Shown one piece after another: positions 10,605 to 53,623 of a DNA stretch of 64,000 bases. Position 1 is the stretch's first letter. The number at the start of each line of letters is the position of its first letter. The translations under genes were made by a program, and so were the position numbers. The notes beneath the pieces were generated by a model. It ran no database searches and was not told the DNA's origin. It saw only the letters and a program-made list of their open reading frames with translations. The stretch is from contig NW_027590119.1 of the NCBI RefSeq assembly GCF_964213995.1, forward strand, positions 2,294,001 to 2,358,000, read 5' to 3'. The stretch comes from Mustelus asterias (Eukaryota).

Positions 10605-11472
10605 TCATCTGTGAACTCGCTGGTGTTTCACCAGATTGGATGATTCGGTAAATCTCTTCCCGCACTCGGAGCAGGTGAACGGCCTCTCCCCAGTGTGAAT
10701 GTGCTGGTGTGTCAGCAGGTGGGATGATCGTGCAAATCCCTTTCCACACTCGGAGCAGGTGAACGGCCTCACCTCAGTGTGAATTTGTTGGTGTGTCAGC
10801 AGGTTGGAGGACTGACTGAATCCCTTCCCACACTTGGAGCAGATGAACGGCTTCTCCCCAGTGTGAACTCGCTGATGTACAGTGAGATGAGATGATCGCC
10901 TGAACCCAGTCCCACAGTGAGAGCACTGGAACGGTCTCTCCTCAGTGTGAACAAGCTGATGGGACATCAGTTCACCAGAACTTTTAAAGCACTTCCCACA
11001 CTCTGGACATTTAAAAGGTCTCTTGTCAGTGTGAACTCGTTGGTGTGTCTGAAGGTGGGTTGCTGTCCTGAAACTCTTCCCACACTAAGCAGCTGAACAG
11101 TGTGTACTCGGTGTGAATGCGCTGGTGCTCCCTCAGTCTGTGTGGGCTTTTAAAGCTCTTCTCACAACTGGAGCATTGAAACTCTCTCTTGTCAGTGTGA
11201 ACTTGCTGGTGTTTCAGCAGGTGGGATGAGCGAGTGAATCCGTTTCCACACACCGAGCAGGTGAACGGCCTCTCCCCGGTGTGGAGTCGCTCATGCAGCT
11301 GAAGGCAGATGAACTGAGCGAATCTCTTCCCACATACGGAACAAATGAACGGCCTCTCCCCGGTGTGTCTGCGTCGATGAATTTCCAGCTCAGATGGGGA
11401 TCTGAATCCCTTCCCACAATCCACACATTTCCACGGTTTCTCCCTGGTGTGAACGGTGCTTTTTGCTTCCAT
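10605..11472 (-). pseudogene. Class B C2H2 ZNF gene with a 2-bp frameshift near 11085
   Basis: ORFs 11026..11571 and 10605..10967 join into about 10 fingers if 2 nt are restored inside one CxxC. Confidence 0.75.
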
Positions 11473-11957
11473 GTTCAAAGGCCGATGATATTCAAGTCCT
11501 GATGAATCGAGTGACTCTGTCAGATTTTGATGTGATGTTTGGTTTGACTTTCCTGATCGTGAACCTTTCAAATATTCTGTAAAATGAATTTAAGACAGAA
11601 TCAAGGAAATATAAAAGAGAACCCAGAAAAACACAAAGGCAGGTTGTGAAATTGAACTAAATTAATCTTGTAATTTGTGGGGCCAGCGCTAGGAAAAAGT
11701 GACACTGAAAACTGCTGGATTCTCATAAAAACCCAACTGGTTCACTAATGTCCTTTAGGGAAGGGAACCTGCAACCCAGTCTGGGCCTACACAAGACTCT
11801 GGCTTCTATGGGAGGAGAGAAAGAGGCGAAGGAGAGGGTGAAAGAGATGAACTTCATAGATCTGCAACTGAATTTGAATTTCAAAAGAATCTCCCAAACC
11901 CATAACTCCACCCACTGGAAAGACAAGAGCAGCTGATGCCTGGAAAAACCATCACCT

Positions 11958-12325
11958 CCAAGACACACACCAGCGAGTTCAGACTGGGGAGAGACCAGAC
12001 TCCTGCTCCACATGTGAGAAAGATACAATCGATCATCTAATCGGCTGACACACCGGCGAGTTCAGCAGTGATTACTGGGATTGGATTCTGCTGTTGTTGC
12101 TGCTGTTAATGACATCCAAGACTGAACTCTGTTCATTCTGATAGTTTGAACATAAGAACATAAGAAATAGGAGCAGGAGTAGGCCATCCAGCCCCTCGAG
12201 CCTGCCCCGCCATTCAATAAGATCATGGCTGATCTGAAGTGGATCAGTTCCACTTACCCGCCTGATACCTGTTGGGTTTGTTTCTGTTGATGTTTACAAT
12301 CTCTGGATGTTTAACATTCTGGAAC
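11958..12325 (+). pseudogene. Decayed ZNF 3' end plus conserved 3' UTR, with a CR1 tail inserted at ~12150-12270
   Basis: HQRV-TGERP remnants followed by ggattctgctgtt...gactgaac...gttcattctga. Confidence 0.6.
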
Positions 12326-12397
12326 TTGGCTTGTTTTACCTTGTAACCCTTACTCTTCCAATAAAGTATCTTTCTTTGGTCTATAGCAAATAGTGAT

Positions 12398-13080
12398 TTA
12401 CTTGTAATTTTTTTCAACTGAATCAGAGCAGAGGAATAACCTCTCCCCAGTGTGAATCTGCTGGTGCACTGTGAGGTGAGATAATCGCCTGAACTCAGTC
12501 CCAAAGTGAGAGCACCTGAACGGTCTCTCGTCAGTGTGGACACGTTGATAGGATATCACTTCCCTGGAACTTTTACAGCTCCTCTCGTATTCTGGGCAAT
12601 TAACAAAATCACTCCAGAGTGCGAACACGTTTGTGTGTCATATGGTGGGATGACTGAATGAATCCCTTTCCATCTCTGGAGCATTTGAACAATCTCCCCC
12701 CAGTGTGACTATGTCAGTGAGCCAACAGGTTGGATGATGGAGTGAAATCAGTCCAATACACAGAGCCAGTGAACGGCCTCTCCCCGGTGCCCGATGAGCT
12801 TCCAGCTCAGACGGGTAACTGAATCCCTCATCACTGTCCTCACTCTTCCATGGTTCCTCCCCAGGATGTTTATATTTGTAGCTCCCGAGGCCAGATGATC
12901 AACTGAAGCTGCGTCCACACAGAGAACAGTTTCATCTACTGTGAACAATGCTTTTTCCTTCAATGTTTAAAATCTGAATGATAATCAAGTTAGCGTTAAC
13001 TGGGCAGCTCCGTCAGATCCTGATGTGATGTTTGTTCGAAGATTCCTGACTGCAAATCCTCCTCTTCTAAAACTCTGTGA
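12398..13080 (-). pseudogene. Class B ZNF pseudogene
   Basis: [30 protein letters not shown] with stops and frameshifts; class B leader. Confidence 0.8.
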
Positions 13081-15325: not shown

Positions 15326-15599
15326 CCACGCAGAGTTAGCATGGATTTAAGTTGCCAAATGCATTTCCTTCTATGTTGTAATCTCTGCATCACTGGAAAT
15401 TGATAAAGCAGCCACACTGCTGTATATTTCAAGACAAAAAATATGGGATCATAAATAACATATCTCTCTCCCATACAAATTTACTGTTCATTTAAATGTT
15501 AGCCCTCTTCTGGGAAAACTGAATTGTGAACATTGGGTAAGAGGCTCCCCTATTAGCCAGATAAACTGAGGGAACTAAAAGATGTCAATGTCTTTGAGA

Positions 15600-15788
15600 G
15601 CAGTCCAAAGATGTGCAGGTTAGGTTGATTGGCCATGCTAAAATTGCCCCTTAGTGTCCTGGGATGCGTAGGTTAGAGGGATTAGTGGGTAAATATCTGG
15701 GGGTAGGGCCTGGGTGGGATTGTGGTCGGTGCAGACTCGATGGGCCGAATGGCCTCCTTCTGCATTGTAGGGTTTCTATGTTTCTATG
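15600..15788 (+). mobile_element. HE1 V-SINE 3' half
   Basis: gcagactcgatgggccgaatggcctcc...tttctatg tail. Confidence 0.85.
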
Positions 15789-15989
15789 AGAGAAACAAAA
15801 ATATACCTGGGCCTAGTCCTGTTCCTGAATCCAGTCTTCATCTGTAACCTTTCCAGAGTCTGCTGCCTCCCTGGATTCACTTCCTTTCCCTTCAGTTGCT
15901 GCAAGTCCCCAATTTCCCCCAGAATGAGAAAAGAAATGGAAAGGGGGAAACATTGATTTCCTCCCAGATGTTGCCCAGAGGAGGGAGTT

Positions 15990-16420
15990 TGGACAACTTC
16001 CACATTGTGACATCATAATAGAGCTCTGCCTAAATCAGCCAATAGGAATCATTCTGCTCCGCGATGACGTCTCCGGCTTCCAGCGCACAGGCCCGGGCGC
16101 GCGGACCCGGGAACCCCGCTCCCACCCCCACCCATTGTTCCCCCTCCACCTCTTCCTGCCACGGTTTCCAATCAACCGGCTGACAGCTCCGGCCAGAGCG
16201 AGAAGCCGCGGAGTGATCGCCCCCTCCCTCGGCCCGGGACTGCGCATGTCCAAGGGAGAGGGGAAGATGCGCATGTGCGGGGGAAGCCAACCTTTTGACC
16301 TGCTGCTGAGGTATTGGCCAATGGAATGTTGGAGGACCGGAAGTTCTCTGGTCCTCCAGCCAATCAGAGCTCCCCCATTGTCTGAATGCGGAAGTGGACA
16401 ATGAGCTTCATATAAAGCAA
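15990..16420. promoter_or_regulatory. Bidirectional CpG-island promoter of a ZNF pair
   Basis: CCAAT boxes, TGACGT, NRF1-like TGCGCATG, ETS CCGGAAGT, dyad at 16330-16358; paralogue of 29735-30100. Confidence 0.75.
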
Positions 16421-16435
16421 TTTTTTTTTAAAGCG

Positions 16436-16648
16436 GCATCTCGGCCTTTTGGCTAAGATGCAAATGCGCCCAAGTCTGGAGGAGGATCCTCCCCCTTCTC
16501 CAATCAGCTTGGCTCATGTAGATCAGGCCCAGGACAGGGTGGTTTGGTCGCTTGCCCTGTCTTGCCAGCCTGGATCGGAAATGTCTCAACTTGTTGAGAC
16601 TCTGAATTGGATTTGATTTGATTGAATTGGAAAAGTATTTTAAAAAAG
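16436..16648 (+). ncRNA. U2 snRNA-derived structured element (SINEU-like or divergent U2 pseudogene)
   Basis: TCTCGGCCTTTTGGCTAAGAT equals U2 nt 7-27; several downstream hairpins; rest not alignable to canonical U2. Confidence 0.65.
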
Positions 16649-17357
16649 CTGCTCATTCCTGCCCAGCAAAGCTGCTGCTGCTCTCTCTCTGAATGAACAT
16701 TGAGCTTCAGACACAGACTCAAACTTCTCCAGTCATCAACATCTGTGAGTAAAACACTTTATTTTCTCTTCCTTTCCATTTCTTTTCTCATTCTGGGGAA
16801 ATTGGGGACTTGCAGCAACTGAAGGGAAACGGAGTGAATCCAGGGGGGCTGCAGACTCTGGAAAGGTTGGCCCAGGTCTCTCTTTCTCTTAAAGACATTA
16901 ACATCCTTTGCTCCCTCAGCTTGACACATTGATTTGTCTGGCTAAAAGGTCCCTTTCCTAATGTTCACAATTAAAGGGCTGGTTTCCCCAGGTGATGGCT
17001 GACATTTAAAAGGACAATAAATGAATATAGGACAGAGATATGCCTAGTGTTGTTATATTGTAGATTTGGTATATTATTTATGGTTCTGAAACAGAGTACA
17101 TTTATTATTAATTCTCGTTTTGTAATGTAGCACTGAAGCTATGTTATATATTTTCACTCATTGAGTCATTACAGCGCAGAAGGAGTCCATTCAGTAACTC
17201 GAATCCATGCCGACTCTCTGTAGAACAATCCAGTCAGTCCCATTCCCTTTCTCTATCCCCTTTCCCCTGCAACTTCATTTCCTTCATGTCCCCATCTAAT
17301 TTCTGAAATATATTAAAGGGGACAGTAAACTAATACAGGACAGAGACGTGTCTGATG

Positions 17358-18333: not shown

Positions 18334-19044
18334 GGTGAATATTAGATACAGCAGAGTGAGAATGGAGGGAGAGTGTGTGGGATGGAGATTCACAGCTTTT
18401 GGGGAATGAGAGAGGAAAGAATGTTCATTAGAATCATAGAATTGCTGCATCTTATCAACCGTCCCTGAGCTTTCACAATGAATCCCACTTCTGAGGACAC
18501 CCTTATCTCTGACTTGTCTGTACTGCTGGCAGTCTCACAAAGCAGCTGCCTGTGTGCTGATATGGGAGGCCCTGCTGGGCAAGTTTAATGCTCCATGACT
18601 GTGTCTTTAAAGAATACTCCATAAACTAGAAATGTAGATTTGAATTTCGATCATATTCTGAATTGCAATGTTTTTTTTCTAAATTGACTTACAGGATATT
18701 AGACAAGGAGAAATCAGACAGAAATCTCCAACATCACATCGAGATCTGACAGAGTGACTCGATTTCTTGGGACCTGAATATCATCGGCCTTTGAATCTAG
18801 CAGGAGAAATGCTTGTTTGGCCTCTTGGCTTCAAAAGATTGTAAACATCACTGTTACTAGAAATGCACTGAGATACACACACCCGAGTGAGAGTGTTCCA
18901 GTGCAGTGAGTGTGGAAAGAGCTTTAACCAGTTACACAGCCTGAAAATACATCGCAGCATTCACAGCGGGGAGAGATTGTACCCGTGACCTGTCTGAGAT
19001 TTAACTGATTGTTTAACCTGGAGAGTCACAAGGACACCCGCACC

Positions 19045-19971
19045 ATGGAGAAACCGTGGAAATGTGGGAACTGTGGGAAGGGATTCATATCCCCATCTCA
19101 GCTGGAAATTCATCAACGCAGTCACACTGGGGAGAGACCATTCACCTGCTCTGTGTGTGGGAAGGGATTCACTCAGTTATCCAGCCTGCAGAAACACAAT
19201 CTCACTCACACCAATGAGAGACCATTTAAATGCTGTGACTGTGGGAGTGGTTTTAAAAGCTCTCAGGATCTGGTGTCCCACCAGCGCATTCACACTGAGG
19301 AGAGACCGTTCAGCTGCTCTCACTGCACAAAGAAATTTAGAACTTCATCCAACCTGCAGATACACCAGCGAGTTCACACTGGGGAGAGACCGTTCACCTG
19401 CTCTGTGTGTGGGAAGGGATTCACTCAGTCATCCAGCCTGAAGACACACCGAGTCATTCATACCAATGAGAGACCCTTTAAATGCTGTGACTGTGGGAAT
19501 GGCTTCAAAAGCTCTCAGAAACTGATCGTCCACCAGCGCATTCACACTGAGGAGAGGCCGTTCAGCTGCTCTCACTGCTCAAAGAGATTTAGAATATCTT
19601 CAGCATTGCTGAACCATCAGCGAGTTCACACCAGGGAGAGACCATTCACCTGCTCGGTGTGTGCGAAAGGATTCACTCAGTTATCCAGCCTCCGCAGACA
19701 CAACATCACTCACACCCCGGAGAGACCCTTTAAATGTTCTGACTGTGGGAGTGGCTTCAAAAGCTCTCATGAACTGATTACCCACCAGCGCATTCACACT
19801 GGGGAGAGACCGTTCAGCTGCTCTGACTGTGGGAAGGGATTCGCTCAGTCATGCAACCTACGGGTACATCAGCGAGTTCACACTGGGCAGAGGCTGGTCA
19901 CCTGCTCTGTGTGTGGGAAGGGATTCACTCGGTCAGCAAACTTGGTGAAACACCAGCGAGTTCACAAGTGA
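19045..19971 (+). CDS. C2H2 zinc-finger protein (11 fingers, class A)
   Basis: Intact array; gcaccATGG; splice acceptor at ~18694. Confidence 0.92.
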
Positions 19972-28241: not shown

Positions 28242-29210
28242 TCAGTCCTGGGTGTGATTAACAGCAGAATCCAATGCTTGGAATCGCTTGTGAATTCGCT
28301 GGTGTCTCAGCAGGTGGGATGATCGTGTGAATCCCTTTCCACATTCAGTGCAGGTAAATGGTCGCTCCCCAGTGTGAAGTCGCTGGTGTGTCAGCAGGTT
28401 AGACAATCGACTGAATCCCTTCTGACACACAAAGCAGTTAAATGGCCTCTCCCCTTTGTGAACTCGCTGGTGTGAAATCAGGTTGGATGAATCACTGAAT
28501 CCCTTGCTGCACATTGAGCAGGTGAATGGCCTCTCCCCGGTGTGGACTCGCTGGTGTGTCTGCAGGCTAGATGCCTGACTAAATCCCTTTCCACACAGTA
28601 AGCAGGTGAACGGCCTCTCCCCAGTGTGAGTTCGCTGGTGTGAAAACAGGTTGGACGAATCACTGAATCCTTTACCACACTCAAAGCAGGTGAAGGAAGC
28701 CTCCCCAGTGTGAAGTTGCTGGTGTCTCAGCAGGTTGGCGGAGTTAGTGAATCCCTTCCCACACACAGAGCAGGGAAATGGCCTCTCTCTGGTGTGAACT
28801 CGCTGGTGTGAATACAGGTTAGATGACTGAGCAAATCCTTTACCACACATGGAGCAGATAAACGGCCTCTCCCCAGTGTGAACTCTCTGGTGTGTCTGCA
28901 GTGTGGATGAATCGCTGAATCCCTTCTCACACATGGGGCAAGTGAATGGCCTCTCTCCATTGTGAACTCGCTGGTGTATCAGCAAGTGCGATGACTGAGT
29001 GAATCCCTTCCCACACTGAGAGCAGGTGAATGGCCTCTCCCCAGTGTGAACTCGCTGGTGTGTCCGCAAGATCGATAACCGAGTGAATCCTTTCCCACAA
29101 TTGGAGCAGGTGAATGGCCTCTCCCCGGTGTGACTGCGTCGATGAATTTCCAGCACTGATGGGGAACGGAATGACTTTTCACAGTCCTCACATTTCCATG
29201 GTTTTTCCAT
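28242..29210 (-). CDS. C2H2 zinc-finger protein (11 fingers, class A); frame stays open upstream to 29357
   Basis: Intact array starting MEKPWKC. Confidence 0.92.
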
Positions 29211-29719
29211 GATCCGTGTGTCTTTGTCTCTCCTGCAGTTTTCACAATACGTGCACTGGAACACCGTCACTCGGGTTGCACGGGCCTCGATGCTTTTCTG
29301 TTCACACCAATGGTTCACCCAATTCAAACAGCTATACGTTTCTTCTTCCAGATTCAAACCGATGACATTCAGCTGCCATGAATTGAGTGACTGTTAGATC
29401 TTGACATTTCTATCAGTAAATCCTCTCCTTCTAATATCCTGTAAAAAGAATTTACAAAAGTCATCACTGTCAGAACAAGATAGAAATTCAGATCAGACAA
29501 TTCTAATTCATGTGGAACTCTGCAAAGGATGTCAATATCTTTAAGAGAGAGAGAAACCTGGGCCAACCTTTCCAGAGTCTGCAACCTCCCTGGATTCACT
29601 TCCTTTCCCTTCAGTTGCTCCAAGTCCCCAACTTCCCCGAGAATGAGAAAAGAAATGGAAAGGGGGAAACATTGATTTCCTCCCAGATGTTGCCCAGAAG
29701 AGGGAGTTTCACTGAGTCT

Positions 29720-30150
29720 GAATCTGAATCAATCGAACTTCCGCATTGTGACGTCCACAATGGAACCTGCCTGAATGAGCCAATAAGAATCAGTCTCTTC
29801 CGCAATTACGTCATGGTGTTCCAGTGCGCAGGCCCGGGCGCGCGGACCCGGGAGCCCCGCCCCCACCCATTGTTCCCTCTCCCCCTGCACCTCTTCCAGG
29901 CAACCGGCTGGCGGCTCCGGCCACAGCGAGAAGCCGCTCGGTGATCTCCCCCTCCCCCCGGCCCGGGGATTGCGCATGTCCAAGGGAGAGGGGAAACTGC
30001 GCATGTGCGAGGTCGACCGCCTCCTGACCTTCATGCTAGGGTGTTGACCAATGGGAAGAGTTGGAGGACCGGAAGGACTCTGGTCCTCCAGCCAATCAGG
30101 TCTTTGTGGCACTCAGATTGAGCTGCACACAGACTGAAACTTCCTCCTGT
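29720..30150. promoter_or_regulatory. Bidirectional CpG-island promoter of a ZNF pair
   Basis: Paralogue of 15990-16420; dyad at 30062-30090; lies between divergent ZNF genes. Confidence 0.78.
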
Positions 30151-30151
30151 C

Positions 30152-30436
30152 GGAAGGGAGTTATTTTGATGATATGGATTACAGCTTCATATCCCAGATG
30201 AAGCGAGGTACCTAAGTATGTTTTATTCTCCAAACAAGCGATCAGATGACATCGAACTCTGGCGGATAACTAATTTATCACTTATTTCCTTAAAAGAGGC
30301 CAACATCTAGCTCTTATTTTGTACTTTGATTTTTGTTCGGGTTGTTCCCCCTCCTTTTGGGGAGCTGCCCCTTTTACTTTGTCCTGATTTAAGTTGAGTT
30401 TGTTCATTTGTTTTGACCTAAAAGAGGCCAACATCT
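30152..30436 (+). mobile_element. Two tandem short insertions, possibly Tx1-like 3' ends
   Basis: Absent from the paralogue at ~16735; both end TAAAAGAG followed by GCCAACATCT. Confidence 0.45.
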
Positions 30437-30567
30437 GTGAGTTTCTTTTCTCATTCTGGGGGAAATTGGGGACTTGCAGCAATTGAAGGGAAAGGAAGTG
30501 AATCCAGGGAAGCTGCAGACTCTGGAAAGGTTGGCCCAGGTCTCTCTCTCTCTCTTAAAGACATTGA

Positions 30568-31022
30568 CATAGAAACATAGAAGGTAGGAGTAGGAGGAGG
30601 CCATTTGGCCCTTCGAGCCTGCTCCGCCATTCATTACGATCATGGCTGATCATCCAACTCAGTAGCCTAATCCTGCTTTTTCCCCATAACCTTTGATCCC
30701 ATTCGCTCCAAGTGCTTTATCCAGCCATCTCTTGAATACATTCAATGTTTTGGCATCAATTACTTCCTGTGGTAATAAATTCCACAGGGTCACTACTCTT
30801 TGGGTGAAGAAATGTCTCCTCAAATCCATCCTAAATGGTCTACCCTGAATCCTCAGACTGTGACCCCCTGTTCTGGACTCCATCGCGAACATCCTCCCTG
30901 CATCTATCCTGTCTCGACCTGTTAGAATTTCATAAGTCTCTTTGAGATTCCCCCCTCATTCATCTGAACTCCAGCGAAAACAATCCAAACCCAGTCAGTC
31001 TCTCCTCATACATCAGTCCCGC
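30568..31022 (-). mobile_element. CR1 LINE 3' part
   Basis: RHFFTQRVVTLWNLLP motif; ttctatgt tail. Confidence 0.88.
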
Positions 31023-31184
31023 GATTCCCTCAGTGTTCCAGTGACCCGACTGTGGAAAGAGCTTTAACCAGTTACACAGCCTGAAAAAACATCATACCAT
31101 TCACAGTGCGGAGAAATGTACATGTGTTTTGTGTGAGGCTCCAACTGACCGTCCAATCTGGAGAGACAAATGAATAACTGAATC

Positions 31185-32195
31185 ATGGAGAAAGCATGGA
31201 CATATGATGATTGTGGGATGGGATTAATGTTCCCATTTGAACTGGGAAATGATCAATACAGTCACACTGCGGAGGGACCGTTCACCTTCTCCATTTGTGG
31301 AGATGGATTTACTCAGTTATCCAGTCTGTTGACACACCAGCCAGTTCATTCCGGGGAGAGGCCATTCAGATGCTCCATGTGTGGGAAGGAATTTGCTGAC
31401 TCATGTGACCTGCTGGCGCATGAGCAAGTTCACACTGAGGAGAGCGCATTCACCAGGACTGTGTGTGGCAACGGCTTCACTCAGTCATCCCAGCTCACTG
31501 AACATCAACATGTACACAGTGATCAGAGACTTTTTAAATGTTCTGACTGTGAGAAGAGCTTTAAAAGCAAAAAATATCTGCAAATACACCAACGACTTCA
31601 CAGTGGGGAGAGACTGCTCAGCTGCTCTGAGTGTGGGAAGAGATTCGTTCAGTCATCTCAGTTGCTAATACACCAGCGAAGTCACAGTGGGGTGAGGCCA
31701 TTCACCTGCTCTGTGTGTGGAAAGGGATTCACTCAACCACACCACCTTCGGACACACCAGCGAGTTCACACTGGGGAGAGGCCATTCATCTGCTCTGAGT
31801 GTGGGAAGCGATTCACTCACTCATATCAGCTTCTGTTGCACCAGCGAGTTCACACTGGGGAGAGGCCGTTCACCTGCTCTGTGTGTGCTAAGGGATTCAT
31901 TCAGTCATCAGATCTACAGGTGCACCAGCGAGTTCATACTGGAGAGAATCCATTCACCTGCTCCGTATGTGGGAAAAGATTCTCTCAGTCATCGCAACTC
32001 CTGAAACACCAGCAAGTTCTCACTGGAGAGAGGCCATTCACCTGCTCTGACTGTGGGAAGGGATTCACTCAGTCATCCCATCTGCTGAGGCACCAGCGAG
32101 TTCACACTGGGGAGAGGCCGTTCACCTGCTCAATGTGTGGGAAGGGATTCAATCAGTCATCACACCTTGTGACACACCAGCGAGTTCACAAATGA
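31185..32195 (+). CDS. C2H2 zinc-finger protein (12 repeats, about 8 intact)
   Basis: Open 336-aa ORF with degenerate N-terminal fingers. Confidence 0.85.
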   Translation: MEKAWTYDDCGMGLMFPFELGNDQYSHTAEGPFTFSICGDGFTQLSSLLTHQPVHSGERPFRCSMCGKEFADSCDLLAHEQVHTEESAFTRTVCGNGFTQSSQLTEHQHVHSDQRLFKCSDCEKSFKSKKYLQIHQRLHSGERLLSCSECGKRFVQSSQLLIHQRSHSGVRPFTCSVCGKGFTQPHHLRTHQRVHTGERPFICSECGKRFTHSYQLLLHQRVHTGERPFTCSVCAKGFIQSSDLQVHQRVHTGENPFTCSVCGKRFSQSSQLLKHQQVLTGERPFTCSDCGKGFTQSSHLLRHQRVHTGERPFTCSMCGKGFNQSSHLVTHQRVHK

Positions 32196-33899: not shown

Positions 33900-34912
33900 G
33901 GCTCCACAGTACAGGAGCACACTGACCGTATAAGAGTCTAATCAGCCTGCAGGTTCCTGTTAAATACAGAGCAATACAGGAACACACTGACAGTGTAACA
34001 CAGTCTCATCAGCCTGCAGGCTCCTGTTAAACATGATGTGGAGATGCCGACGTTGGACTGGGGTAAACACAGTAAGAAGTCTCACAACACCAGGTTAAAG
34101 TCCAACAGCTTTATTTGGTAGAACAAGCCACTAGCTTTCGGAGCACTGCCCCTTCATCAGATGAGTGTTCACCTGACGAAGGAGCAGCGCTCCGAAAGCT
34201 AGTGGCTTGTGCTACCAAATAAACTTATTGGAATTTAACTTGTTGTTGTGAGACTTCTTACTGTCGCCCCTGTTAAACACAGAGCAGTACAGGAACAGAT
34301 ATTCAAGAGGTGGGCTGGATATAGCACTTGGGGCGAATGGGATCAAAGGTTACGTGGAAAAAGCAGGATTAGGCTATTGAGTTGGACGATTGTAAAGAAT
34401 GGTGGAGCAGGCTCGAAGGGGCAAGTGGGCTCCTCCTGCTCCTATCTTCTATGTTTCTATTAACACACTGACTGGATAAAACTGTCTCATGAGCCTGCAG
34501 GCTCCTGTTAAATACAGAGCGGCAGAGGAACACACTGATAGTGTTACACTGTCTCATCAGGCTGCAGGCTCCTGTTAAATACAGAGCGGCAGAGGAACAC
34601 ACTGACAGTGTAACACAGTCTCATCAGCCTGCAGGCTCCTGTTAAATAGAGCTGTACAGGAACACACTGACAGTGTAACACAGTCTCATCAGCCTGCAGG
34701 CTCCTGTTAAATACAGAGCGGCAGAGGAACACACTGACAGTGTAACACAGTCTCATCAGTCTGCAGGCTCCTGTTAAACACAGAGCAGTGCAGGAACACA
34801 CTGACAGTGTTACACTGTCTCATCAGCCTGCAGGCTCCTGTTAAATACAGAGCTGTACAGGAACACACTGACAGTGTAACACAGTCTCATCAGGCTGCAG
34901 GCCCCTGTTAAA
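33900..34912. repeat. ~67-bp minisatellite interrupted by Penelope and CR1 ends
   Basis: Unit cagtgtaacacagtctcatcagcctgcaggctcctgttaaatacagagcggcagaggaacacactga, about 9 copies. Confidence 0.9.
34032..34268. mobile_element. Palindromic Penelope-terminus insertion with two back-to-back hammerheads
   Basis: ~95-bp inverted arms; hammerheads at ~34127-34165 (-) and 34169-34206 (+); TSD cctgttaaaca. Confidence 0.8.
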
Positions 34913-35509
34913 TTTGCTGAGATGATTTCAATTTAAACCAGGTTTGCAGGCATCATGTTCCATTCACACATCAAAGGAGAGAGAGATGTTTTGGGACAGG
35001 GGTGACGTCCAAGAGTCAAAAACAACAAGCAGACTTGCTTTTGGCTTTATTGATCACAGGACTGTGACCGATAACTTCCCTGGATCCCAGCGCCAGGAAA
35101 GACACTCTGGAAAATATGGGGAGCTGAGAATTGTCCATGAGAATAACCGAAGGTGAGAGAGTGAAACAATCTAGAGTTAGAAATGAGAAAAGGCCCCAAA
35201 ATGAAGCACTCGGTAACAGGACATCAATTAATCTCCTCTTACATTGGAGAAATATGGAACACAGCACAGTGTATTTCCATAAAAACTGATTTAGTGACAT
35301 TCATCTAGAATATTAATCACCCCGACAATGGGGCTGGAGTTTAACAAGCAGAAACACACAAGAGGACACAAACTCACTCCTGCGCATTAACTCACTGATG
35401 TCTCAACAGGTGTTGTGACTGAATAAATCCCTTCCCACAGACAGAGCAGGTGAGAATCCTCTCTCCAACATGAATGCATTGGTGTGTCTGCAACTCACTC
35501 ACTCTTCTC

Positions 35510-37029: not shown

Positions 37030-37825
37030 CATCCTCCAGTGGCTGAGCCAGGATGGGGCCGTTAACCTGGGCCTGTTCCCGGGAGGGAGAAGCCCCGCAG
37101 CTGCAAACCAGGGAGCTGACAATGATTCTGAAGGGTTTGCGGATCCACAAAGTGTTTCCAAATCCTCCCAGCCACCGCCTAACGCTGACTCCGCTTCTCC
37201 GGGACAAACAAGCGCCAAGGACACTGCGCATGCTCCACATCACAATGCCCCAGGGTGTGATTGACGGCCGCTTGGGACCAATAGGAAGGGGCGGGGCTGG
37301 AGGACCCAGCAGGAGCGGCTAGTCCTCCAACCAATCGGAGTGAATGAGGGGCGGGGCTGAGGTGTCCCCATACAACGCACGGGAAGGCGTTCGCATGCGC
37401 AGTAATGTTACAGTCTGGAGCATGCGTTGTAAGCAACGGCGTTTGCAACACGCGCAATGTGGGTGATCGCAATCGGAGAGAAGTTCCTCTGTCTCATCAG
37501 CAGCCGGTAAGGATGCGGAAACATAGAGGGAGTAATGGAACCGGCGGATGGACGTAGAGGGTTTCTAAATACCTGGTGAAGGCCTCAAATCTCGAAAATG
37601 AGCCCGTCGGTCTGTGTTTGCAGCTTCCGGTCTTTTTCCCGAGACGAGGCTCAGGTTAACGGCCGCCATCTTGATTCAGCAGGGAGGAGAGCGCATGCGC
37701 GGTGTCTTGGTGACGCAACAGCGAGTGGGCGGGGCCTCACGTTTCTGCTTCCCCTCCAGGTCCTAGCTCCCGGTCCAATAGCACAATGAGCTATTAATAG
37801 GTTTCTAAACAGCTTCACCCACCCT
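37030..37825. promoter_or_regulatory. Bidirectional CpG-island promoter of a ZNF pair
   Basis: NRF1 sites, GC boxes, CCAAT, YY1 GCCGCCATCTT, dyad at 37298-37329. Confidence 0.75.
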
Positions 37826-40690: not shown

Positions 40691-40837
40691 CATGTAATTC
40701 TTTGTAAACTTATTTTACAGGAAATTGAAGAGAAGGATCTGCAGTCTGGATGATCGAATCTCACGTCAGACAGAGTCAATCGGTTCATCGGGATCTGAAA
40801 ATTTGTGCATCTGAAGGGATTTAATTGACCATCTCAG

Positions 40838-42781
40838 TTGGAAACTGGTGAGAATCTGTTTCCTTGCCCCTCCTGTGGGAAGGGATTGATACAGCTGGAA
40901 AACATGCTGACACGACAGCGAGCTCGCAATAGTGAGAGTTCATTCACCTGCTCCGTGTGTGGGAAGAAATTCATGTGTTCGTCCAACCTGCTGGCTCACC
41001 AACTCGATCACATTATTCAGAAGCCTCTTCAAAGCTCTGACTCTGGGGAAAGCATTGAAACCTCTGAGGAACAGGCCCAACACCAGCTCCTTCACACTGA
41101 CGAGAGACCGTTCAGCTGCTCCCACTGCGGGAAGAGGTTCAGCCAGTCCTCCCGCCTTGCAGAGCACCAGCTCCTTCACACACACGCCAGACCGTTCAGC
41201 TGCTCCCACTGTGGGGAGTCGTTCAGCAACTCAGTGCATCTCACTGAGCATCAACCAGTTCATACCAAGGACAGGCCATTCAGCTGCTCCCAGTGTGGGA
41301 AGAGATTCACTCAGTCCTCCCACTGCACCGTTCACCAACTGGTTCATTCTCAGAAGAGACATTTTAAATGCTTTAAATGTGAGAAGACCTTCAAAAGAAG
41401 GATTAGTCTGCTGAGACACCAGGACACTCACACCGGGGAGAGGCCGTACCCCTGTTCTGTTTGTGGGAAGAGATTCGCTCATTCATCTCATCTTCTGACA
41501 CACAAGCGAGTTCACACTGGGGAGAGGCCTTTCCTCTGCTCCCTGTGTGGGAAGAGATTCACTCGATTTTCACACCTTTTGACACACAAGAGTGTTCACA
41601 CTGGAGGGAAACCATTCACCTCCTCAATGTGTAGAAAGGAAGAAGTTCAATCAACTGACCAGCTGACACACCAGCGAGTTCACACTGGGGAGAAGCTGTT
41701 CACCTGCTCGGTGTGTGGGAAGGAATTCACTCGGTCTTACTATCTTCTGAGGCACCGGCGAGTTCACACTGGGGAGAGGCCATTCCTCTGCTCCGTGTGT
41801 GGGAAGATGTTTCCTCATTCATCCCAGCTTGTGATACACGAGCGTGTTCACACAGGGGAGAGGCCTTACGTTTGCCCTGTGTGTGGGAAAGCATTTGCTT
41901 CTTTACAACACCTGCTGAAACATCGGCCTGTTCACACAGGGGAGAAGCCATTCTCTTGCTCCATTTGTGGCAAGAGATTCACTCAGTCGTCTGACCTGCT
42001 GAGACACCAATACATTCACACAGGGGAGAGGCCGTTCACCTGCTCTGTGTGTGGGAAGGGATTCATTGGTTCATCCTGCCTGCAGACACACCAGCGAGTT
42101 CACACCGGGGAGAAGCCGTTCACCTGCTCTGTGTGTGGGAAGGGATACACTCAGGTATCCAGCCTGCAGAGACACCAGCGAGTTCACACTGCGACAGAAC
42201 CGTTCACCTGCTCCCTGTGTGGGAAGGGATTCACTGATCCATCCCACCTGCAGAGACACCAGCGAGTTCACACTGGAGAGAGGCCGTTCCTGTGCTCTGT
42301 GTGTGGGAAGGGATTCGCTCAGTCGTCTAGCCTGCTGAGACACCAACGCATTCACACCGGGGAGAAGCCGTTCATCTGCTCTGTGTGTGGGAAGGGATAC
42401 ACTCAGGTATCCAGCCTGCAGAGACACCAGCGAGTTCACACTGCGACAGAACCGTTCACCTGCTCCCTGTGTGGGAAGGGATTCACTGATCCATCCCGCC
42501 TGCAGAGACACCAGCGAGTTCACACTGGGGCAAAACCTTTCAACTGCTCCATGTGTGGGAAGGGATTCACTGATCCATCCCGCCTGCAGAGACACCAGCG
42601 AGCTCACACTGGGACAGAACCGTTCACCTGCTCCCTGTGTGGGAAGGGATTCACTGATCCATCCCGCCTGCAGAGACACCAGCGAGTTCACACTGGGGCA
42701 AAACCTTTCAACTGCTCCATGTGTGGGAAGGGATTTAATCAGTATTACAGCCTGCTGAAACATAGACGACTTCATGTGTGA
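40838..42781 (+). CDS. Long C2H2 zinc-finger protein (23 repeats, about 20 intact; first ATG at 40904)
   Basis: 647-codon open array; splice acceptor at ~40720. Confidence 0.9.
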   Translation: METGENLFPCPSCGKGLIQLENMLTRQRARNSESSFTCSVCGKKFMCSSNLLAHQLDHIIQKPLQSSDSGESIETSEEQAQHQLLHTDERPFSCSHCGKRFSQSSRLAEHQLLHTHARPFSCSHCGESFSNSVHLTEHQPVHTKDRPFSCSQCGKRFTQSSHCTVHQLVHSQKRHFKCFKCEKTFKRRISLLRHQDTHTGERPYPCSVCGKRFAHSSHLLTHKRVHTGERPFLCSLCGKRFTRFSHLLTHKSVHTGGKPFTSSMCRKEEVQSTDQLTHQRVHTGEKLFTCSVCGKEFTRSYYLLRHRRVHTGERPFLCSVCGKMFPHSSQLVIHERVHTGERPYVCPVCGKAFASLQHLLKHRPVHTGEKPFSCSICGKRFTQSSDLLRHQYIHTGERPFTCSVCGKGFIGSSCLQTHQRVHTGEKPFTCSVCGKGYTQVSSLQRHQRVHTATEPFTCSLCGKGFTDPSHLQRHQRVHTGERPFLCSVCGKGFAQSSSLLRHQRIHTGEKPFICSVCGKGYTQVSSLQRHQRVHTATEPFTCSLCGKGFTDPSRLQRHQRVHTGAKPFNCSMCGKGFTDPSRLQRHQRAHTGTEPFTCSLCGKGFTDPSRLQRHQRVHTGAKPFNCSMCGKGFNQYYSLLKHRRLHV

Positions 42782-48525: not shown

Positions 48526-48629
48526 CAACTGCCCTGATATCGTTGTTCTCATCAGCAAGAGATTGGAAGTGAAAGGGTGAAGCAGTTAGATGGTCAAGTT
48601 ATTCACATTCTGTCAGTGGTAATTCCAAA

Positions 48630-49150
48630 ACATTGCCCCAAACAAAGATGGCGACTGCGCATGCGCCGTGTTGCTGGTGCGCCGACTGAAGACGGCGACT
48701 GCGCACGCGCCGTGTTGCTCGTGCCCCGATGACGATGGCCCTGATTAACCCGGGTCTGTAACTGGGAGAATGCTGAGGCCCTGCTCTGCGCTGAGGGCCG
48801 GGACCATCCTCTGATATCGCCAGGTTCTTTTTAAGAGTTCGCAGTTTACGTAACATGTTTACGACGCCTCTCCAAACCCCCGCCTGGTCTATCGCGTCCT
48901 CCGCCCCGCCATTCCCACCTTTACTGATTGTGGATCCGAGAAAGAATGTCTCCACTGCCATTAATCACACTGCGCATGCTTCACTCAGCCCCGCCCCTCA
49001 TTCGCTCCGATTGGTCGGAGGACCAGCTGCTCCCTCGCGATCGTCCAGCTTCCTCTCCTTCTATTGGCCCGGAGCTGCCGTCAATCAGTCCCCGGGCATT
49101 GTGAGGTGTCGGGTGAGAGGTCAGTGCCGGGGGGCGGGGTTTACAATGAA
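48630..49150. promoter_or_regulatory. Bidirectional CpG-island promoter of a ZNF pair
   Basis: YY1 AAGATGGCG next to NRF1 TGCGCATGCGC (duplicated), GC boxes, reversed dyad plus CCAAT at 49010-49047. Confidence 0.75.
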
Positions 49151-49490
49151 CATCCTCCACTCTCCCTGTCCACCGCTTCCGGCTTCTCCCCACAAACCAT
49201 CTCCAACAAAGAGAGAATGGGACACACTGACCGAGTGACAATGTCACTGCATTAGTAATCCAGAGAGACAGCACAATGTTCTGGGGACAGGGCTTCAAAT
49301 CCATTCAATTAATACAATCTGCAATTTAAAGTTAGTCTCAGTGAGGGTGACTGAGGCTTCTCTGAGAAAATCTGCACACATTCCATTCTGGGCACAAGAT
49401 TCAGATTCCTGTTTTGTCACAAGGTATGAATGAAATTATGTTCAGTTTGTTATTTTTGTTAAAATTGGATTTTTTTGTTAAATTTGACAA

Positions 49491-52663: not shown

Positions 52664-53623
52664 GGCCTTGGCGAGATGTTCGTCTTCATCAATGACATGT
52701 TGAAGGCTCTGGAGGAGATGCCGTAGCTTCTCCGCATCTCCTCCAGAGCCTTCAACATGTCATTGATGAAGACGAACATCTCGCCAAGGCCATCCCCACA
52801 CCCCCACTTCTTGCCTTCAAACAACCGCACAACCTCAAACAGATCATTGTCCGCAGCAAACTACCCAGCCTTCAGGAGAACAGTGACCACGACAACACAC
52901 AACCCTGGTACAGCAACCTCTGCAAGACGTGCCGGATCATTGACACAGATGCCATCATCTCACGTGAGAACACCAGGTACATGGTACATACTCTTGCAAC
53001 TCGGCCAACGTTGTCTACCTGATACGCTGCAGGAAAGGATGTCCCGAGGCATGGTACATTGGGAAAACCATGACGCTACGCTACGACAATGGATGAATGA
53101 ACACCGCTCGACAATCACCAGGCAAGACTGTTCTCTTCCTGTTGGGGAGCACTTCAGTGGTCACGGGCATTCAGCCTCTGATATTCGGGTAAGCGTTCTC
53201 CGAGGCGGCCTTCACGACACATGACGGCGCAGAGTCGCTGAGCAGAAACTGATAGCCAAGTTCCGCACACATGAGGACGGCCTCAACCGGGATATTGGGT
53301 TCATGTCACACGATCTGTAATCCCCACAGCTTGCCTGGACTTGCGGAATTTCACTGGCTGTCCTGTCTGGAGACAATAGACATCTCTTTGACCTGTCTTG
53401 GTGCTCTCTCCACTCACATTGTTTGTACCTTTAAGACTTGATTAGCTGTAAGTATTCGCATTCCAACCATTATTCTGTAAATTGAGTTTGTGTCTTTATA
53501 TGCCCTGTTTGTGAACAGAATTCCCACTCACCTGAAGAAGGGGCTTGGAGCTCCGAAAGCTTGTGTGGCTTTTGCTACCAAATAAACCTGTTGGACTTTA
53601 ACCTGGTGTTGTTAAACTTCTTA
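52664..53623 (+). mobile_element. 5'-truncated Penelope-like element (GIY-YIG endonuclease, pLTR)
   Basis: Frameshifted translation PLLAFKQPHNL...CKTC...NVVYLIRC...WYIG...RQWMNEH...VGEHF...GLN; 58-bp 5' inversion. Confidence 0.9.
53524..53568 (+). ncRNA. Minimal type I hammerhead ribozyme
   Basis: cac-CTGAAGA-a-ggggc-ttgga-gctcc-GAAA-gc-TT-gtg. Confidence 0.7.

Follow-up and report, generated by a model that had tools for sequence, protein, structure and literature searches.

Genes, promoters and inserts in the window

The window, by which we mean the whole 64,000-nucleotide stretch of Mustelus asterias DNA that was analysed, carries ten arrays of C2H2 zinc fingers (ZNF) in the strand order + − + − + − + − + +. 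As the initial annotation had described, four divergent arrangements are present at ~16.2, 29.9, 37.4 and 48.9 kb, in each of which a CpG island lies between a minus-strand and a plus-strand finger array. The first two islands are the cores of cassettes framed by inverted arms, here termed cassette 1 and cassette 2, and no arm was found at the 37.4- and 48.9-kb promoters. The features are collected in Table 1.

Table 1. Positions of genes, promoter cores, arms and inserts in the window.
Feature	Position	Strand	Remarks
Second, distal minus ZNF exon	10605..11576	-	ATG 11472, frameshift near 11086; open with 10 fingers in 14 paralogues
Decayed ZNF exon, nearest left partner of cassette 1	~12300..13074	-	no canonical finger
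Outer ~70% mirror homology to 16886-17042	15459..15600	-	parted from the arm by a repeat insertion, 15601-15790
Left arm of cassette 1, GG type	15845..15973	-	end of exon-1 homologue, donor position without GT, conserved ~100-bp block 15845-15944
Promoter core of cassette 1, CpG island	15981..16408	.	NRF1-, CCAAT-, ETS- and CRE-like motifs, GGAGGACC..GGTCCTCC dyad; putative bidirectional use
3' part of young U2-headed SINE-like repeat, A-rich tail	16409..16647	+	239 bp, inside likely exon 1 of the plus gene
3' part of exon 1 of the plus gene, likely non-coding	16648..16744	+	donor GT at 16745; predicted splicing
Right arm of cassette 1, GT type	16745..16905	+	likely start of intron 1, conserved block 16771-16870
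Plus ZNF exon	18695..19971	+	acceptor before 18695, all three leader frames closed by stops, ATG 19045, 11 C2H2 fingers and no further Pfam domain
Intact minus ZNF exon, cassette 2	28242..29438	-	ATG 29210, 11 fingers
Left arm of cassette 2, GG type	29522..29692	-	ends ~85 bp before the acceptor at 29439
Promoter core of cassette 2	29700..30110	.	80% alike to core 1
Two inserts in a row that end in AAAAGAGG, shortly before exon 1 ends	~30151..30428	+	first boundary read by eye
Right arm of cassette 2, GT type	30429..30570	+	cut off by a repeat at 30568
Plus ZNF frame, cassette 2	31182..32195	+	8 canonical fingers, degenerate first fingers, acceptor region missing
Divergent CpG-island promoter, other class, without arm	37201..37800	.	
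Divergent CpG-island promoter, other class, without arm	48601..49200	.	

The two cores had been called near-identical, but in a BLAST of the window on itself they share only 80% identity over 550 bp. The cassette length of ~1 kb given at the outset includes the inserts 16409-16647 and ~30151-30428: an insert-free copy is ~830 bp long.

At all four divergent islands, NRF1-like sites (2-4 per promoter vs 0.03-0.14 expected from shuffled sequences) and CCAAT boxes (2-3 vs 0.1-0.3) exceed expectation; every one of the islands also has ETS-like sites, and YY1-like sites occur at those of 37.4 and 48.9 kb. Divergent promoters are enriched in Nrf-1, CCAAT, YY1, Sp1 and GABP motifs according to the available part of PMC2077898. 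The islands thus combine NRF1/CCAAT/GABP/YY1-type motifs with a head-to-head arrangement of genes on opposite strands, whose start sites, judged from the motifs and the homology of exon 1, would lie <1 kb apart. The proposal of a bidirectional-type promoter therefore stands as the likely reading of the cassette core. A dyad of the form GGAGGACC-N-GGTCCTCC followed by CCAAT is found at 16331-16357, at 30063-30089 and at 37299; as it is common to promoters of different classes, the dyad together with CCAAT is a candidate family-wide binding site. Unstranded contigs of four runs (three from other organisms, one from a fish metagenome), guessed to be RNA and aligned to cassette 2 only, cover both arms and the core: they carry the family-majority letters at least at 29620, 29632, 29639 and 30483, unlike the window copy, and none of the 15 joints listed for cassette 2 from these presumed RNA runs, out of a set with 395 further joints, matches a predicted donor.

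In both arm-linked genes of the window, the leader between acceptor and ATG contains stops in all three frames. Pfam scans of six finger frames and three arm or core frames returned finger families only and no KRAB box; a genome-wide KRAB search gave no match, but neither did its positive control. The predicted proteins are bare arrays of ~8-12 fingers without a Pfam effector domain. One partner is damaged in each of the two cassettes. The left partner of cassette 1 had been taken to be the array at 10.6-11.4 kb; the nearest one is instead the decayed exon at ~12.3-13.07 kb, into which the first acceptor left of the cassette leads and which lacks a canonical finger in all 27 loci, of 40, that hold it. 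On the right side, 18 of 40 cassette-1-like loci have an undisturbed exon 1, and the other 22 bear an insert or deletion in it. What looked like an inversion of the left array in 13 of 39 paralogues is in fact another gene, convergent and on the plus strand, that stands in its place. The window holds a 3' remnant of such a ZNF gene on the plus strand at 11965-12148, and since 13/39 paralogues hold the whole convergent gene, a rearrangement has replaced it in the lineage of the window. Separately, the array at 40829-42781 comprises 20 fingers, and the internally repeated fingers at its 3' end are a sign of recent unequal crossing over.

Both cassettes have been invaded by mobile elements. The insert at 16409-16647 is absent from 28 of 30 loci and has 2435 first-look candidates genome-wide, the scored copies lying mostly on contigs C1-C26. 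It belongs to a repeat of ~330 bp whose copies are ~95% alike and which consists of a U2 5' head, a second U2 piece and an A tail (L053, L054, L059, L064); a target duplication is visible at L053, and the U2 match, 49 bits at L064, is above the gathering threshold in one of three loci scanned. The second of the two inserts in 30151-30428 matches the 3' end of a LINE, a longer copy of which encodes endonuclease and reverse transcriptase. Insertions of this LINE recur at the end of exon 1 on both cassette sides, often as stacked 3' tails (L244, L094-L104), and in all 20 loci viewed, many of them copies of one insertion, the inserts stop just before the CAACATCT word. The start of the left exon-1 insert of L103 and L104, which is joined to a 3' part of the LINE, resembles what we take to be tRNA-derived sequence. 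Further repeat DNA comprises the near-palindromes at 34069-34264 and 52664-52791 (87% and 95%) and a short tandem array at 34462-34913.

The arms and the conserved block

Self-BLAST of the window recovers the inverted arms at both cassettes: 15846-15973 pairs with 16737-16868 (133 bp, 88%, E 7e-41), and 29529-29655 with 30442-30570 (129 bp, 92%). The two motifs reported for them are also in place in both copies: CAACATCT is followed by GTGAGT on the plus strand (16737-16750 and 30429-30442) and by GGGAGG on the minus strand (15973-15960 and 29692-29679). Mirror homology falls from 88-92% in the arms to ~70% in the intron, which supports an old inverted duplication. The arms are not the ends of the cassette: because the inverted homology runs outward at ~70% (15459-15600 with 16886-17042), they are not sharp ends, and among 31 arm matches in six contiguous regions (1.06 Mb, 95 arrays) 16 stand in mirror pairs and 15 alone, the pairing being our reading of the map. 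Of 120 distinct arm contexts, 51 are of GT type, 54 of GG type, and 15 have neither motif. The types are fixed and tied to the promoter half; since GG occurs in left-type genes, intact ones included, it is an old fixed trait and not a lesion of the window copy. In the L039/L040 region, ~6.2-6.8 kb left of the window, two same-strand arms, one GG-like and one of GT type, stand in tandem. The arms are thus a ~100-bp non-coding block just past exon 1 on many genes of one promoter class, and the inverted repeat results where two carriers of the block came to lie head to head after an old inverted duplication.

Conservation peaks in a block from about -45 to +55 around a TTGCAG word, which is 94-97% alike between families vs 76-85% in the intron beyond: GG and GT arms share 0.94 of positions (23 pairs; 0.76 beyond), and GT arms of different families share 0.97 (57 pairs; 0.85 beyond). 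Among close paralogues, with misaligned parts masked and groups of fewer than three sequences left out, GT arms vary at 8 in 300 columns (0.027) vs 91 in 1173 (0.078) in the intron (p 0.0016), which indicates constraint, while GG arms show none (44/699, 0.063, vs 143/2765, 0.052; p 0.27). A purely functional element does not explain the free variation of GG arms; the largest GG group leads to the decayed exon. The arm does not behave as a hairpin or pre-miRNA, folding no better than shuffles (z -1.1 to +1.8 in seven folds, median +0.86 in 61 variants), and in Rfam it has matches far below gathering only.

We consider it probable, on the whole of this evidence, that the cassette consists of a CpG-island core, which likely serves as a bidirectional promoter, between back-to-back C2H2 genes, and that its arms are a shared ~100-bp non-coding leader block, which likely stems from an old inverted duplication and has probably been kept as a regulatory element of the DNA. 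Both genes would start in the core. In GT-type genes a short non-coding exon 1 would be spliced to a single finger exon; GG-type genes would use a later, weaker GT in or just past the arm, or would remain unspliced. The block itself may bind transcription factors just downstream of the start site, and the GG arms might be kept alike partly through occasional exchange between paralogues.

Exchange can also be taken as the whole explanation: the arm would be mostly functionless and kept alike by repeated non-allelic gene conversion and by crossover near the promoter, perhaps with the LINE contributing, so that it serves as a joint for swaps of promoters and gene bodies. We think this unlikely. 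It accounts for GG arms that vary at the intron rate in recent copies and are yet 94% alike to GT arms, and three loci (L004, L103 and L104) bear marks of exchange at the arm: L004 contains a tract of ~400 bp, reaching from exon 1 into the intron, whose identity to the other copies compared does not exceed 93.8%, and in L103 and L104 a family-1 left intron is joined to an 83% core via a hybrid GG/GT arm behind a LINE insert. One block match, moreover, has its two ends within the first exons of cassette 1 and cassette 2. Against conversion as the main force, however, stands the comparison of left and right arms in 39 two-arm cassettes: identity is 92.6% within a locus and 92.3% between loci, which lends no support to pair-specific homogenisation, and the variants shared between the two sides (7/245, p 0.08) apparently all come from one locus with a one-base shift. 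Family-specific changes of right arms were not copied to left arms, a discordance scan for an exchange hot spot, itself disturbed by indels, showed no clear excess at the arm, and GT arms are constrained among close paralogues. The description that fits the block best is that of an element selected at the DNA level on the GT side and exchanged now and then.

A bolder extension of this description, which we regard as quite doubtful, is that the block is a family-wide control element, for example one bound by a finger protein of the family itself, which would switch hundreds of effector-less ZNF genes together; lying beside the site of a target-specific LINE, it would also be a standard joint for the exchange of promoters and arrays, and would thereby give rise to a modular, recombining repertoire of DNA-binding proteins in cartilaginous fishes.

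Gene pairs, duplication units and remaining alternatives

The initial annotation viewed the cassette as a module of two genes, amplified together, through which pairs of rapidly varying finger proteins are co-expressed, resembling a KRAB-independent repertoire for the recognition of transposons. The scans described above, free of KRAB boxes in the six finger frames, are compatible with the last part, and gene orientation lends some support to the pairs. Strand switches between neighbours amount to 60 of 90 vs 46.8 expected (permutation p 0.003) for the 95 arrays of at least three fingers in the six regions of 1.06 Mb, four of which were chosen for holding cassettes and which share duplicated blocks; the unselected region with arrays gave 10/17 (p 0.32), an under-powered count, a second unselected region being without arrays. 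Head-to-head gaps are also shorter (median 4.2 vs 7.1 kb), and a CpG island is present in 25 of 30 head-to-head, 19 of 30 tandem and 4 of 30 tail-to-tail gaps. The head-to-head excess is real in the sample, but modest.

The unit of duplication is nevertheless larger than a gene pair. The window is collinear from 1.7 to 36.3 kb with contig C181 at 92-96%, from 12.3 to 30.4 kb with one region of C71, and from 16.7 to 30.2 kb with another; these blocks of 13-35 kb hold both cassettes and up to six finger arrays each, and some small contigs may be alternative haplotypes. Searches of the 3.68-Gb genome gave 1569 first-look candidates for core 1 and 1599 for core 2, of which 40 were scored per core; among the 28 best core-1 copies, at least 12 are accompanied by a core-2-like match at a distance of 12.7-16.9 kb and in the same orientation. 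Nor are the pairs fixed, as partners have been exchanged: the right partner of cassette 2 is, across copies, one of three unrelated arrays, and about seven types can be told apart among the right arrays of cassette-1-like loci, many of these arrays being cut off by the 10-kb limit of view. Co-expression of pairs is doubtful in view of the damaged partner in each window cassette, namely the fingerless left exon of cassette 1 and the right gene of cassette 2 that has lost its acceptor region, and of the inserts and deletions in exon 1 on the right.

Rapid variation, finally, applies to the right partners, whose arrays are swapped, but not to the left genes. Fourteen copies of the distal-left gene contain 32 synonymous and 30 nonsynonymous variants (ratio 0.26, purifying selection), with 2 base-contacting changes in 91.7 sites; such changes number 0 in seven copies of a neighbouring gene and 1 in three copies of a right gene. 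In four copies of the left gene of cassette 2, the base-contacting residues are nearly constant, the exceptions being single changes and the loss of one finger. Positive selection on base-contacting residues was thus not seen within subfamilies by variant counts, which are not a codon-model test and do not cover swapped arrays. Taken together, the array swaps among right partners and the purifying selection within subfamilies show that finger variety arises by swapping and reshuffling of arrays. We therefore hold the two-gene module to be improbable as a whole.

Very improbable is that the arm is a small coding exon which adds a short N-terminal effector peptide to the finger proteins. One frame of its central 50 bases contains no stop in any of the 109 full copies, and its splice phase would fit the acceptor, but third codon positions are no more variable than the other two, so that no synonymous bias is evident, the leader downstream is closed in every frame of the two arm-linked genes of the window, and Pfam gives no hit. 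The only protein matches are three unnamed gene calls of 62-72 amino acids without fingers; word searches, which are weak, found neither proteins with the arm peptide nor any annotated protein extended at its N-terminus. That the cassette is an invertible promoter switch, or a non-autonomous DNA transposon bounded by terminal inverted repeats, as suggested by inverted arms around a core with about 1570-1600 first-look candidates, is refuted for the copies examined and hardly credible otherwise: in the 28 best core-1 copies homology continues at 93-98% for kilobases past the arms and leaves no boundary for a target duplication, so that the sharp terminal repeats, target duplications and unrelated flanks of a MITE are lacking, all 40 scored matches of each core lie on contigs numbered C71 or higher whereas the inserted repeat hits C1-C26, and the orientation of the core to its left flank is kept in 28/28 and 26/26 loci.

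Comparison with known systems

Two of the inserts have counterparts in the part of PMC4494074 available to us. The U2-derived head, the repeated U2 piece and the A tail of the insert in cassette 1 recall SINEU, which that study found only in crocodilians; a literature search that lay outside most subscription papers and outside Repbase found no title on SINEU in sharks, and if the repeat is absent from repeat databases, it would widen the range of SINEU-like elements past the crocodilians. The LINE that inserts at a fixed site resembles the target-specific Tx1 LINEs of the same source, with the difference that its target here is exon 1 of a ZNF gene.

The cassette shares head-to-head genes, a CpG island and NRF1/CCAAT/ETS-like motifs with vertebrate bidirectional CpG-island promoters, as far as the available parts of PMC2077898 and PMC3082894 describe them, and differs from them in that the partners are paralogous, the leader is mirrored and the copies are many. 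No paper on head-to-head ZNF genes with a bidirectional promoter or a mirrored leader was found among the literature searched, which excludes most subscription papers, and the accessible portion of PMC10887517 holds no ZNF passage. With tetrapod KRAB-ZNF clusters, in the sections at hand of PMC10547256 and PMC11603059, the locus has in common dense, duplicating tandem C2H2 arrays (here 95 in 1.06 Mb, by Pfam zf-C2H2), a single finger exon, birth and death of genes, and shuffling of arrays; here, unlike there, no KRAB was found, the leader is apparently non-coding, and the tested subfamilies lack positive selection. The arrangement would thus resemble a vertebrate bidirectional CpG-island promoter placed inside a birth-and-death ZNF cluster.

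The nearest functional analogue, going by excerpts of PMC10547256 and PMC11603059, is the FiNZ-ZNF family of cyprinids, likewise a lineage-specific, clustered ZNF expansion without KRAB. The excerpt of PMC10547256 attributes to FiNZ genes a conserved N-terminal domain, positive selection in four of seven clades, and repression of transposable elements seen by knockdown; the closed leader of the window genes would leave little room for an N-terminal domain of the FiNZ kind. In cartilaginous fishes, KRAB-box families are enriched among the lost families, as stated in the part of PMC8455134 at hand, and this reported loss makes the control of finger-gene clusters an issue in these animals. The mirror cassette is an ordinary by-product of inverted duplication and of head-to-head paralogues; what merits testing is the conserved non-coding block. 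Being a short element in hundreds of copies, it lends itself to reporter, footprint and knock-down experiments that might reach many genes together, just as morpholinos hit more than 400 zebrafish FiNZ genes at once in the work excerpted from PMC10547256.
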